Shown piece after piece: positions 392-30,760 of a stretch of DNA of 41,272 bases. The first letter of the stretch is position 1. Each line of letters starts with the position of its first letter. A model generated the notes under the pieces. The model made no database searches. It saw only the letters and a list, made by a program, of their open reading frames with translations, and was not told the DNA's origin. Made by a program: the position numbers and the translations under genes. The stretch comes from an uncultured Pseudomonadales bacterium (GTDB lineage: Bacteria > Patescibacteriota > Microgenomatia > UBA1400 > PJMF01), in NCBI GenBank assembly GCA_964412775.1, contig CAYPPX010000004.1, positions 1 through 41,272 of the forward strand, read 5' to 3'.

Positions 392-2227
392 ATGGCAGAG
401 ACTTCTAGAAACTTTATCTACCTCTTACCTGATGTTGCCTATGTTGTGGAGTTAGTAAAAGTCAAGGATAGTGATCTTTTTAAGGTTCGTGATTACCTGC
501 AAATCAATGGAAACTTCATGGACGAAAATGACATCTTGGCTGAAAGTATCAAAAAACTGTCTACTAGAATTCAACCAAAGGATTATGAGTTAGTTTTACC
601 TGATTTTCTTTTTACTAACACTATGGTTAATGTTAAAGAAACAGGCACAGAAAAAGTTTTGGAGTATGTTAATAGGGAGATTATTCCTGATCTAGGTATT
701 TCTGAAAAAACCCATGAGTTAAAAGTTTTTGTATTGAATGAGTTCAAAGGCCAAGCCAGAGTACAACTATCAGCTCTAGAGAAAACTGTTTTGAAACCAC
801 TCACTGATGTTTTTCCAGAGAGTGGCGAGCTAAAAATAAATAATGTTTATCCTTTGAGTTGGGTGACTAAATCTCTAATCTCTCTGGAACCATCAATCAG
901 TGTGGTGCAAATGGGCGCCAAGCTTTATATGGCTCAGCATTATATTGGGATTGACCAAGCAAATGATGCCGAGATTGAAGATGTTGATAAACTAATTGAG
1001 TCAATTAAAACCCTCAAAGGAGCCGAGCCAAGCATCCAAACTGTTTATTTATTGGCTAATGCTTTAGTGGAAAGTAAATTGGGTGATGGTTTGAAAGGGA
1101 CTTTACCGGTCCAACAATTGGCTAAAGATGATGAAGAATCAGAAATGCCATCATATATCAAACAAGTTGCCGAAGCTGCAGTTAAATCAATTGATATTAA
1201 AGAATATCAGATCCCATCTTTTATTTTTTCAGGCGTTGATGGGACTGCCGAAGTTATTGGTGAAACTTTAACCAAAGAAAAACTAACTACTGATGATGTT
1301 AAAGACGAAGTGGTGCTACCCCCTCCAACTGAGCTTGGTACGACTGCTAACGAGGACTTAACCATAGTTAATGAAGAGTTAGACACTGAGCCTGAAAAAA
1401 CAAAAGAAGTTGAAGCTAGTAGTAATGAAGTGGCAGAAACTAAAACCGAAGAAGAGCCTACTGTAGTAGCATCGACCGAAGTTGCCACAGAAAAAGAAAC
1501 TATGAAAATTGAAGACAAAGAACCTACTAAAACAGAACTAGAAACTGTAGCTGAAACAACTACTGAGGTTAAAGAAAAAACAGCTATTTTAAAGACTGAA
1601 GACAAACAAACTTCTGAGGTCAAAGAGGTTGATTTGAGGCAGTTTATGAGTGAAGAAACTACAGAACCAAAAGCTGAGGTTAAAGAAACAGCGGTGGTAG
1701 AAAAAGTGGCAGAACAGTCTAAAAAACAAGTCATCAAGAATGATACTGGGATTAACAACATGGTCAAAATGGTGTTTGTTGCTTTAGTGAGCTTTTTTAT
1801 TACCGTAGGAATTGGGCTGGGTATTGGGCTGGGCTTTTTGACTTTTACTAATAATCAACAAGCCAACAATAACGCCCCTCAAACACCAGTTGCTGAGGTC
1901 TCGCCAACTGCGGAGCCAACCACAGAACCCACTAGTGAGCCAATAGATAGAACCAAATATTCAGTTTTAGTGGTTAATGCAACAACTAAGGCTGGTTATG
2001 CTGGAGAGATTGCAACTGTTTTGGAAGAAGCTGGCTTTGAAGATGTTACGGCAGCCAACGCCAAAGGTGACTACGATGAGGGGAATTTTGTTTTAGCTAA
2101 TACCGAGGAGGCTGAGTTGCTCAAAACCTTGGCTAGTGATACAGATCTAACCTTTAGTTTCTTGGCTGATAAAGAAGTTGAAGATTCAGCCGATAAGTAT
2201 GATTTTGTAATAGTATTAGCTGAGTAG
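392..2227 (+). CDS. Membrane protein: cytoplasmic N-domain, acidic E/T/K-rich low-complexity linker, one TM helix, C-terminal LytR_C-like domain
   Basis: 611-aa ORF. TM segment is MVKMVFVALVSFFITVGIGLGIGLGFLTF. The C-terminus YSVLVVNATTKAGYAGEIATVLEEAGFEDV...YDFVIVL resembles the LytR_C (cell envelope-related C-terminal) domain. The N-domain has FIYLLPDVAYVVEL, faintly PilM/FtsA-like. Confidence 0.75.
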   Translation: MAETSRNFIYLLPDVAYVVELVKVKDSDLFKVRDYLQINGNFMDENDILAESIKKLSTRIQPKDYELVLPDFLFTNTMVNVKETGTEKVLEYVNREIIPDLGISEKTHELKVFVLNEFKGQARVQLSALEKTVLKPLTDVFPESGELKINNVYPLSWVTKSLISLEPSISVVQMGAKLYMAQHYIGIDQANDAEIEDVDKLIESIKTLKGAEPSIQTVYLLANALVESKLGDGLKGTLPVQQLAKDDEESEMPSYIKQVAEAAVKSIDIKEYQIPSFIFSGVDGTAEVIGETLTKEKLTTDDVKDEVVLPPPTELGTTANEDLTIVNEELDTEPEKTKEVEASSNEVAETKTEEEPTVVASTEVATEKETMKIEDKEPTKTELETVAETTTEVKEKTAILKTEDKQTSEVKEVDLRQFMSEETTEPKAEVKETAVVEKVAEQSKKQVIKNDTGINNMVKMVFVALVSFFITVGIGLGIGLGFLTFTNNQQANNNAPQTPVAEVSPTAEPTTEPTSEPIDRTKYSVLVVNATTKAGYAGEIATVLEEAGFEDVTAANAKGDYDEGNFVLANTEEAELLKTLASDTDLTFSFLADKEVEDSADKYDFVIVLAE

Positions 2228-29626: not shown

Positions 29627-29699
29627 GGGCTCGTGGTGTAGTGGTTAACATGCTTCCCTGTCACGGAAGAGATCGCCAGTTCGATCCTGGTCGAGCTCG
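29627..29699 (+). tRNA. tRNA-Asp (anticodon GUC), CCA not encoded
   Basis: Folded by hand. Acceptor GGGCTCG/CGAGCTC with a G2-U71 wobble; D stem GTGT/ACAT; anticodon stem CTTCC/GGAAG with loop CTGTCAC; T stem GCCAG/CTGGT with loop TTCGATC; discriminator G73. 73 nt. Confidence 0.9.
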
Positions 29700-29700
29700 C
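29683..29700 (+). repeat. Direct repeat copy 1 (tRNA-Asp T-loop to 3' end), att-like
   Basis: gatcctggtcgagctcgc is identical to 29875..29892. Confidence 0.95.
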
Positions 29701-29874: not shown

Positions 29875-29892
29875 GATCCTGGTCGAGCTCGC
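29875..29892 (+). repeat. Direct repeat copy 2 (displaced tRNA-Asp 3' fragment, followed by CA completing G-CCA)
   Basis: gatcctggtcgagctcgc is identical to 29683..29700. Here the next bases give ...CTCG-CCA. Confidence 0.95.
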
Positions 29893-29927: not shown

Positions 29928-29950
29928 ACTTATTTTTAGTCCTATAATAT

Positions 29951-29979
29951 TTGACAATTAGCTTAAATTGATTTATAAT
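29951..29979 (+). promoter_or_regulatory. Consensus sigma70-type promoter of micro-ORF cassette A
   Basis: TTGACA (29951-29956), exactly 17 nt, TATAAT (29974-29979). Preceded by cctataata and followed by gctatt, as in cassette B. Confidence 0.7.
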
Positions 29980-29985
29980 TTAAGG

Positions 29986-30141
29986 CTATTAAAGCTTAGT
30001 ACATGGCGTACTTATGTTTTAAAAACAGCAAGTAATTAATTTATTTGCTTTCTTTTAGAATAAATGGCATTTAATTTAGGTATTAGTAAGACTGATATTT
30101 AAATTGAATGCCATTATCATTCTGAAAGGAGGTGAAATGTA
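29986..30141 (+). promoter_or_regulatory. Structured 5' leader of cassette A
   Basis: 16-bp stem 30063-30078 / 30100-30115 (one G-U) with a 21-nt loop. Extendable with bulges to ctttc(30047-30051)/gaaag (30124-30128), abutting the SD aaggaggtga (30126-30135). Confidence 0.45.
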
Positions 30142-30270
30142 ATGGCTACTTGCGAAGAACATAGCTGGTACACTAAGTCATATTTTCCGCATAGATTTTT
30201 GTTCTGGCGGTATATTTGGCAAAAGTGTACTAAATGCAATGCTTGGAGAATTAAACTATACTCCAAGTAA
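30142..30270 (+). CDS. Micro-ORF A, 42 aa: MATCEEHSWYTKSYFPHRFLFWRYIWQKCTKCNAWRIKLYSK (Cys/His and aromatic rich)
   Basis: Hand translation. Perfect SD aaggaggtga 9 nt upstream of the ATG, own consensus promoter and own terminator. CxxH...CxxC spacing. Below the 60-aa cutoff of the ORF track. Confidence 0.5.
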   Translation: MATCEEHSWYTKSYFPHRFLFWRYIWQKCTKCNAWRIKLYSK

Positions 30271-30306
30271 AAAAAGAGCCGTCTCGGAAGGGACGGCTTT
30301 TCTGTT
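30271..30306 (+). terminator. Intrinsic terminator of cassette A
   Basis: agccgtc (30277-30283) / gacggct (30292-30298), then tttctgtt. Confidence 0.75.
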
Positions 30307-30331
30307 CAATGCTTATTATCCTATAATAATA

Positions 30332-30360
30332 TTGACAAAATAGACATATTTTGATATAAT
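30332..30360 (+). promoter_or_regulatory. Consensus sigma70-type promoter of micro-ORF cassette B
   Basis: TTGACA (30332-30337), exactly 17 nt, TGa-TATAAT (30352-30360). The cctataata box lies at 30320-30328. Confidence 0.7.
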
Positions 30361-30366
30361 TAGTGC

Positions 30367-30580
30367 TATTGATTTAGTGAAATAGGTCAAATTGCTTGAC
30401 TAGATTTTCTACTGAACAATAACAAACTCTTGTTCTTTAAAAAATCCTTTGTTTGTTTAGTATATGTCTTCTTTTGTTAGACAGATAACTTGTCTTGGTT
30501 ATTCATAAGAGTAACTAAAACAAGTTATCTGCTCAGACAGAGATAACGACACATTCTTTACAACGAAGGAGGTGAATAAC
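30367..30580 (+). promoter_or_regulatory. Structured ~210-nt 5' leader of cassette B with mutually exclusive helices
   Basis: 12-bp stem 30482-30493 / 30520-30531 enclosing the gttattc/gagtaac hairpin. gttatct (30524-30530) can alternatively pair with agataac (30541-30547). SD aaggaggtga is at 30566-30575. Confidence 0.45.
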
Positions 30581-30700
30581 ATGGCAATCTACATGATTGT
30601 GATGGAATGGTGCCCGAAAGGACACTGGCACATCATGGTTTACCGCTTATGCCCTGAGCATGGGCGGCACCTCGTTGCCCTCGGCATTCTGCCGATGTAG
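30581..30700 (+). CDS. Micro-ORF B, 39 aa: MAIYMIVMEWCPKGHWHIMVYRLCPEHGRHLVALGILPM (Cys/His rich, GC-rich codons)
   Basis: Hand translation. Perfect SD 8 nt upstream of the ATG, own consensus promoter and terminator. CPxxH...CPEH spacing. About 54% G+C by hand count in an AT-rich genome. Confidence 0.5.
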   Translation: MAIYMIVMEWCPKGHWHIMVYRLCPEHGRHLVALGILPM

Positions 30701-30725
30701 CCGATTCACCCTGACCAAGAGACTT

Positions 30726-30760
30726 GTGCCGCTTCGTAAAGAAGCGGCACATTTCGTTTA
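30726..30760. terminator. Intrinsic terminator of cassette B (also downstream of the convergent NUDIX gene)
   Basis: gtgccgcttc-gtaaa-gaagcggcac (30726-30750), then atttcgttta. Confidence 0.75.

Follow-up and report, generated by a model that had tools for sequence, protein, structure and literature searches.

A 42-codon open reading frame (micro-ORF A) in the reduced genome of a member of the Patescibacteria is very probably a genuine coding gene that is maintained by selection. The frame is unannotated, and gene callers have overlooked it in each of the assemblies in which it occurs. It lies in a stretch of 41,272 nucleotides that was analysed as a whole (hereafter, the window; the genome it comes from is denoted G000). 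We hold with moderate confidence the complete model in which micro-ORF A encodes a genus-restricted zinc-ribbon micro-protein, the leader of its mRNA gates translation, and an ATG-TAA start-stop that overlaps its start codon is incidental. If so, the gene provides a bacterial, genus-specific example for a poorly explored class, the free-standing zinc-finger micro-proteins, and its stable leader, which occludes the ribosome-binding site, offers an opportunity to test gating after transcription in a group with almost no experimental genetics. A tempting regulatory story built around the start-stop is unsupported and is removed from the account.

Judging from its signals, micro-ORF A is an autonomous single-gene unit that consists of a promoter, a 156-nt leader, a Shine-Dalgarno sequence, 42 codons and an intrinsic terminator (unit A; Table 1), and we infer a transcription start near position 29986. 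The core GGAGG of the Shine-Dalgarno block (30128-30132) is followed by two ATG triplets, at spacings of 4 nt and 9 nt, of which the second opens micro-ORF A. The encoded peptide contains 4 Trp, 4 Tyr and 3 Phe residues, and its candidate metal ligands are Cys4, His7, Cys29 and Cys32. The coordinates, composition and Cys/His positions given by the first-pass annotation all match a re-reading of the sequence, and so does the overlap of ATG-TAA with the true ATG (ATGTAATG, 30137-30144). The promoter is conserved in position in two related genomes that carry orthologs of the gene, G001 and G003, and the CCTATAAT motif is found upstream of both orthologs. The terminator is conserved in these two genomes as well and is the only part of the unit left in a third relative, G002, from which the ORF is gone.

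Table 1. Coordinates of the features of unit A and of the neighbouring cassette B in the window.
Feature	Position	Strand	Description
CCTATAAT motif	29941-29948	+	immediately 5' of the -35 box; element of a recurrent promoter module
Sigma-70-type promoter	29951-29979	+	TTGACA, 17 nt, TATAAT; 12/12 against the consensus
5' leader, ~156 nt	29986-30141	+	exceptionally structured (predicted); MFE -64.5 kcal/mol
Long imperfect hairpin enclosing the ribosome-binding site	30028-30153	+	predicted; preceded by a small 5' hairpin
Pyrimidine-rich anti-Shine-Dalgarno strand	30047-30054	+	complete pairing with 30126-30133 in the MFE fold
Shine-Dalgarno block AAGGAGGTGAA	30126-30136	+	identical 11-mer in cassette B, upstream of its ORF
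ATG-TAA start-stop	30137-30142	+	ATG 30137-30139, TAA 30140-30142; final A shared with the ATG that opens micro-ORF A
Micro-ORF A	30142-30270	+	42 aa; pI 9.6; 26% aromatic; ATG 30142, TAA 30268-30270
Intrinsic terminator	30277-30305	+	GC-rich stem 30277-30298 and T tract
Cassette B	30319-30751	+	CCTATAAT motif, 12/12 promoter 30332-30360, perfect boxA consensus at ~30432
Cassette B, downstream part	30482-30751	+	23-bp hairpin 30482-30531, Shine-Dalgarno 11-mer 30566-30576, ORF 30581-30700, terminator 30725-30751

The coding status of micro-ORF A can be gauged from its orthologs. Six-frame searches, carried out over 61 relatives and then over 140 genomes of the family, yield one ortholog in G001 (95% identity, E 5e-24) and another in G003 (59% identity, E 7e-13). 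In both genomes, the ortholog is the first gene past tRNA-Asp and has a promoter, a leader and a terminator of its own; the genes that follow differ, with one for an ABC ATPase next to the G001 ortholog and one for a macro-domain protein next to that of G003. Codon alignments reveal purifying selection in both comparisons, with dN 0.04, dS 0.62 and dN/dS 0.065 for G000 versus G001 (Fisher p 1e-5), and dN 0.35, dS 1.37 and dN/dS 0.25 for G000 versus G003 (Fisher p 0.012). The steps that separate G000 from G001 comprise 9 synonymous and 4 non-synonymous ones and include an AGC-to-TCT switch between serine codons. The sole length difference within the ORF among the three orthologs is an in-frame indel of 3 nt, and the plus frame of micro-ORF A is the only frame that is open in 3/3 genomes. 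The ORF is also more similar between the genomes than the leader in front of it (87% versus 78% identity in G001, and 59% versus 46% in G003). An antisense ORF (30117-30266) shares third codon positions with micro-ORF A and so could, in principle, mimic the signal of selection; as a real gene, it was rejected, given the stop codons that interrupt it in G001 and G003.

With purifying selection and a frame open in two other species, the first-pass proposal that this frame encodes a real peptide is borne out. That proposal came with the suggestion of looking for homologs in relatives and for a bias towards synonymous changes, and the search produced the two orthologs with the dN/dS ratios given above. 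It further held that homologs with stops or frameshifts and a retained RNA structure would speak for an RNA instead of a protein; the G001 and G003 orthologs have neither stops nor frameshifts in the plus frame, which is open in both.

A six-frame profile search of the 140 family genomes recovers G000, G001 and G003 only, the remaining matches having E >0.002 and, mostly, internal stops, and a scan of 185,579 species genomes finds only the same two species (G001 and G003). Two metagenome contigs carry copies that are identical to the G003 sequence. A word-based search of 5.8 billion proteins returns no candidate, neither protein A itself nor its ortholog, which implies that the ORF was called by no gene caller represented in that set. 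A profile search of 1.84 billion representative proteins gives 0 matches, tblastn against phage and plasmid collections finds no homolog of the peptide, and the ESM Atlas offers just unnamed small-protein clusters (<=0.90). Across these collections, micro-ORF A is restricted to one genus of Pacebacteria (Patescibacteria). Within the genus, comparison of the sites indicates that the gene is dispensable and has been lost in at least one congener, because G002 retains the terminator alone and the site in G004 is empty. In G002, the tRNA is followed by a homolog of a 150-nt RNA-like element and then directly by the terminator of unit A and a 3' remnant of cassette B; in G004, neither unit A nor cassette B is found at the site.

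Unit A belongs to a plus-strand islet of 1.2 kb that lies between minus-strand housekeeping genes, those for LemA and an M48 peptidase upstream and those for a NUDIX hydrolase and a histidine phosphatase downstream. The islet consists, in this order, of tRNA-Asp (29627-29700), a 190-nt segment, unit A and cassette B. Rfam, searched at the gathering thresholds and at E up to 10, identifies tRNA-Asp only, the rest being microRNA or sRNA noise. The ~190-nt segment, which has a terminator of its own and no match to an Rfam family, is bounded by an exact 18-nt repeat of the 3' end of tRNA-Asp (29683-29700 and 29875-29892). A homolog of this segment is present in G002; in G004, the same ends enclose a different sequence and the terminator is duplicated, and no such segment is found in G001 and G003; the related loci are L019 1690-1830 and L020 1680-1810. 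The tRNA-Asp site looks like a hot spot of recombination or integration and not like a fixed RNA gene.

The ORF of cassette B encodes a Cys/His-rich protein of 39 aa. Its peptide has no match in four congeners, and only the 3' end and the terminator of the cassette are kept in G002. The possibility that A and B are paralogs was considered and dropped, given that the B peptide is unmatched in the congeners and has no evident relation to A. A strict scan of the genome for cassettes that combine a promoter, a small ORF and a terminator finds only B; unit A is missed because the start-stop intercepts the pattern of the scan.

The leader of unit A is predicted to be folded to an unusual degree. Its minimum free energy has a z-score of -9.9 relative to shuffled sequences and is below that of 328/328 equal-size gene-start windows (background mean -33.9, sd 8.4). 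The core of the fold is a long imperfect hairpin topped by a near-perfect apical duplex of 25 bp (30063-30087 paired with 30091-30115); lower in the stem, the Shine-Dalgarno block faces a pyrimidine-rich strand, and codons 3-4 of the ORF are predicted to pair with 30028-30034. On average, a base of the Shine-Dalgarno sequence is predicted to be unpaired with a probability of 0.06, and the predicted accessibility of the region from -16 to +2 is within the lowest 3.4% among 328 genes. The G003 leader, at only 46% identity, has the same architecture, with a CUUCUU tract that pairs with the Shine-Dalgarno sequence. In the MFE structure for G001, the Shine-Dalgarno sequence pairs with downstream and not with upstream sequence. 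Of the 45 pairs in the consensus fold with the orthologs, 11 are maintained by double changes that compensate each other among the three sequences, which is suggestive of a helix conserved through compensatory changes.

Because the Shine-Dalgarno sequence and the start codon lie inside the predicted lower stem, ribosomes could translate the ORF efficiently only once this helix had opened or been cleaved. In this model, the strong promoter gives rise to a stable mRNA of which the primary transcript would be translated poorly. RNase III, which is encoded in G000, could plausibly cut the 25-bp apical duplex and so free the ribosome-binding site; once the helix is opened or processed, the basic zinc-ribbon micro-protein would be made and would bind a nucleic acid or protein partner. 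On the strength of the predicted folds, the view that the leader gates translation after transcription is slightly favoured. The genes nusB and rnc (RNase III) are apparently adjacent in the genome, on the same strand (G000:C2:128384-129328).

The pyrimidine tract of the leader was also considered as a boxA element, for which the Nus-factor consensus is GYTCTTTAANA (PMC5725501). This assignment was rejected, the tract being off consensus and pairing with the Shine-Dalgarno sequence instead; the boxA consensus is matched in the leader of the G003 ortholog and in cassette B, and not in leader A. Elements of this kind recur in the genome together with the promoter type of unit A. The module CCTATAAY, 0-5 nt, TTGAYW-17-TATAAT occurs 10 times in G000, versus 1 occurrence in the reversed control, with cassette B counted among the 10 only when a wider spacer is allowed. 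The sites are C1:3119(-), C1:170895(-), C1:298663, C1:312297, C1:312947, C3:4252, C7:13959 and C7:15807(-), along with window positions 29941 and 30320, and the genes under the module encode secreted proteins or lipoproteins, membrane proteins, a possible helicase and small ORFs. A boxA-like GYTCTTTAA is found within 300 nt downstream of strong promoters (>=10/12) at 9/58 sites compared with 0/72 in the control, and 7/9 promoters with such an element have the CCTATAA motif as well. NusB and Rho are both encoded in G000. The promoter module with the boxA-like element may represent an rrn-like antitermination leader placed on mRNAs.

Similar elements are found at several further loci. The leader of the 16S rRNA (L017, G000:C13, ~1130-1200, minus strand) contains a boxA-like GAACTTTAATAAG and, further on, ATGGTGGTGAA, a GT-rich word. 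This word recurs after the boxA-like motif in the mRNA leaders at C3:4315 and, as a variant, at C7:14008, and could be a partner of the boxC type. Only part of the 16S gene is assembled (positions 9-873), so that its anti-Shine-Dalgarno tail is unreadable. At G000:C7:13959-14260, a small-ORF cassette combines the same promoter motif with a boxA-like element 11 nt past the -10 box, GGAGG and an ORF of ~47 codons. In G003, the macro-domain-like gene after the ortholog (L004 1690-1910) is preceded by CCTATAAT, a promoter, a perfect boxA consensus, a long hairpin and a Shine-Dalgarno sequence.

The ATG-TAA start-stop in front of micro-ORF A had been read by the first-pass annotation as a device that tunes initiation or loads ribosomes. 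As a selected device, it would have ribosomes load at the first ATG, terminate, and then either re-initiate on the second ATG or occlude it, thereby tuning the output. The motif does exist, a single very strong Shine-Dalgarno sequence is common to both ATGs, and there are precedents: start-stops in Escherichia coli bind ribosomes and lower the expression of their host genes by ~16% (Meydan et al. 2019, 10.1101/520783), and closely spaced ribosome-binding sites may occlude one another (PMC13285730). Moreover, in a stricter set of 151 GGAG-preceded genes of the genome, 0 have an ATG-stop. Against selection stands its distribution. The 59% identical G003 ortholog has a different spacer and lacks the upstream ATG, and in cassette B, the identical 11-nt Shine-Dalgarno block is followed by TAAC and ATG, with no start-stop. 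G001 retains it within an identical block that spans from ~40 nt upstream to 13 nt downstream; this copy has no independent weight because all the bases around it are identical too. In the genome at large, an ATG-stop between -14 and +3 is found in 4/526 Shine-Dalgarno-preceded genes (0.8%), one of which carries the identical ATGTAATGG, and the spacing of 4 nt to the first ATG is short.

Neither the conservation in orthologs nor the genomic background thus shows a sign of selection for the start-stop, and a selected device is a rather unlikely explanation. Because the start-stop is missing in G003 and cassette B and occurs at background frequency in the genome, it is likely to be an incidental, lineage-specific by-product of the spacer sequence, and the tuning or loading role is not upheld. 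In the predicted leader helix, the AUG of the start-stop is paired to U30042-U30044, which offers an alternative reason for these bases. The published ~16% effect and the occlusion of ribosome-binding sites make a small effect possible; at most, the start-stop would divert a few ribosomes, which would re-initiate at the overlapping ATG.

The protein itself is small, basic and rich in aromatic residues, and a zinc ribbon is the favoured reading of it, with some confidence, on the basis of the alignment and the predicted models. All three sequences retain Cys4, His7, Cys29 and Cys32, which are among 22 invariant positions that also include an eight-residue aromatic block past the first knuckle and a Trp-Arg pair after the CxxC. 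The first knuckle, Cys-x2-His in the window and Cys-x-His in G001 and G003, is non-canonical compared with CxxC. The three proteins have pI values of 9.5-10.1, net charges of +5 to +9 and 26-32% aromatic residues; GRAVY ranges from -0.47 to -0.86, and the maximum hydropathy over 15 residues is <=0.43, with no hydrophobic segment. AlphaFold2 models reach pLDDT 70.1 for the window protein and 76.9 for the G003 ortholog, modest values that stem from an alignment of only three sequences, and the two models have the same four predicted strands at equivalent positions.

Comparison of both models with 48,161 PDB chains places the N-terminal zinc ribbon of NrdR first (Z 3.6 and rmsd 2.4 A over 39 residues for the window model; Z 3.4 and rmsd 1.9 A over 35 residues for the G003 model); these scores are not significant (Z <4), as expected for a length of 38-42 residues. 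The Foldseek lists for both models consist mainly of zinc ribbons (Rpp21, RPA12, XPA, eukaryotic ribosomal proteins and NrdR), all with E >1. Profiles from Pfam, NCBIfam, PHROGs and PADLOC, including the one for ribosomal protein L36, give no match (E up to 10 or 1), and a sequence search of the PDB returns only a chance match of 11 residues near the CxxC.

The zinc knuckle or ribbon that the first-pass annotation had proposed therefore stands in part: the quartet is invariant and the models are ribbon-like, but the Cys-x2-His spacing is not kept, being Cys-x-His in the orthologs. A membrane role, which it had suggested for the basic half of the peptide, is unlikely given the negative GRAVY and the absence of a hydrophobic segment. 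In the proposed fold, one metal ion would be held between the N-terminal Cys-x(1-2)-His knuckle and the C-terminal Cys-x2-Cys knuckle of a four-stranded ribbon. By analogy with other free-standing zinc ribbons, the protein probably binds a nucleic acid or protein partner, and we infer a basic, aromatic, accessory micro-protein.

Other readings of the unit have to be weighed against a translated zinc-ribbon gene. The extreme structure of the RNA, together with the absence of the ORF from the gene calls behind large protein collections, could indicate a non-coding transcript in which the ORF has arisen by chance. However, the substitutions are strongly biased to synonymous ones, the indel is in frame, the Shine-Dalgarno sequence is perfect, and the frame stays open in 3/3 species at just 59% nucleotide identity, so that this reading appears extremely improbable. 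The unit might instead be a toxin-like or selfish element in the style of type I toxin-antitoxin systems, with an mRNA that is transcribed constitutively yet inert in translation, and a harmful small protein kept under control by RNA structure and by an antitoxin RNA that has gone unrecognised. Such an element would account for the consensus promoter, the length of the leader and its predicted sequestration of the Shine-Dalgarno sequence, and a product of <60 aa, as well as for the patchy presence in the genus with a deletion scar in G002 and the location in a variable islet beside a tRNA gene with an att-like repeat. The protein, however, is hydrophilic (GRAVY -0.7) and devoid of a membrane helix, and PADLOC gave no match. 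Nor does an antitoxin RNA come into view: there is no convincing antisense promoter (the best one scores 9/12 and is not conserved), and the 150-nt RNA-like element is absent in the ORF-bearing G001 and G003 and present in the ORF-less G002. A toxin of this kind is accordingly an unlikely alternative to the zinc-ribbon gene.

In a broader scheme, unit A would be one case of a route to abundant regulatory micro-proteins that is specific to the Patescibacteria: a consensus promoter module with an rrn-like leader would give an mRNA locked against translation until RNase III or a stress signal frees a zinc ribbon, with RNA, the ribosome or RNA polymerase as its binding target. This scheme, or its alternative of a new non-membrane type I-like toxin, is similarly improbable as it stands. 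The composition of the peptide, with a net charge of +5 to +9 and 26-32% aromatic residues, and the ABC-transporter ATPase encoded by the next gene in G001 would also fit an exported, leaderless, cationic, Trp-rich antimicrobial peptide. But in the window and in G003 the ABC gene is not the neighbour of the ORF, genes for immunity or export are absent from the surroundings, the model lacks an amphipathic helix, and the invariant Cys/His quartet with the beta-hairpin model fits an intracellular metal site better, which leaves an antimicrobial peptide very unlikely. The intracellular zinc ribbon remains the preferred reading.

Parts of this zinc-ribbon unit resemble known systems. The start-stop is like the published ones in that an AUG is directly followed by a stop, a Shine-Dalgarno sequence precedes it and it lies within the ribosome footprint of the main start; the published start-stops, however, are defined by ribosome occupancy, whereas this one is not conserved among the orthologs and occurs at the chance rate in the genome. 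With type I toxin mRNAs, and with phage and bacterial mRNAs activated by RNase III, unit A shares a strong promoter, a long leader that pairs with the ribosome-binding site and a duplex suited to RNase III. It differs from the toxin mRNAs in that no antitoxin RNA was found for it, its product is not a membrane peptide and its processing is putative.

At the protein level, the N-terminal zinc ribbon of the repressor NrdR (PDB 7p37, 9fzf) is similar in size (~40 residues) and in having two knuckles ~25 residues apart, each at a beta-hairpin. Compared with NrdR, protein A has no sequence similarity, its first knuckle is Cys-x(1-2)-His instead of CxxC, the match scores are insignificant, and it stands alone, without an attached effector domain. 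In this last respect, it is closer to the one-domain zinc-finger micro-proteins of Haloferax volcanii, which are likewise free-standing, shorter than 70 aa and built around a single predicted zinc-binding module, many of them with no assigned function (PMC6562870, PMC10716476, PMC11241148). In contrast to the Haloferax type with two C(P)XCG motifs, protein A has one CxxC and a Cys/His pair, and the residue after the CxxC is Asn in the window and Gly only in G003; unlike the archaeal proteins, it is encoded by a bacterium of the Patescibacteria, and homology is not detected. Given its conserved ligand quartet and ribbon-like models, micro-ORF A probably joins the free-standing zinc-finger micro-proteins as a genus-specific bacterial example.
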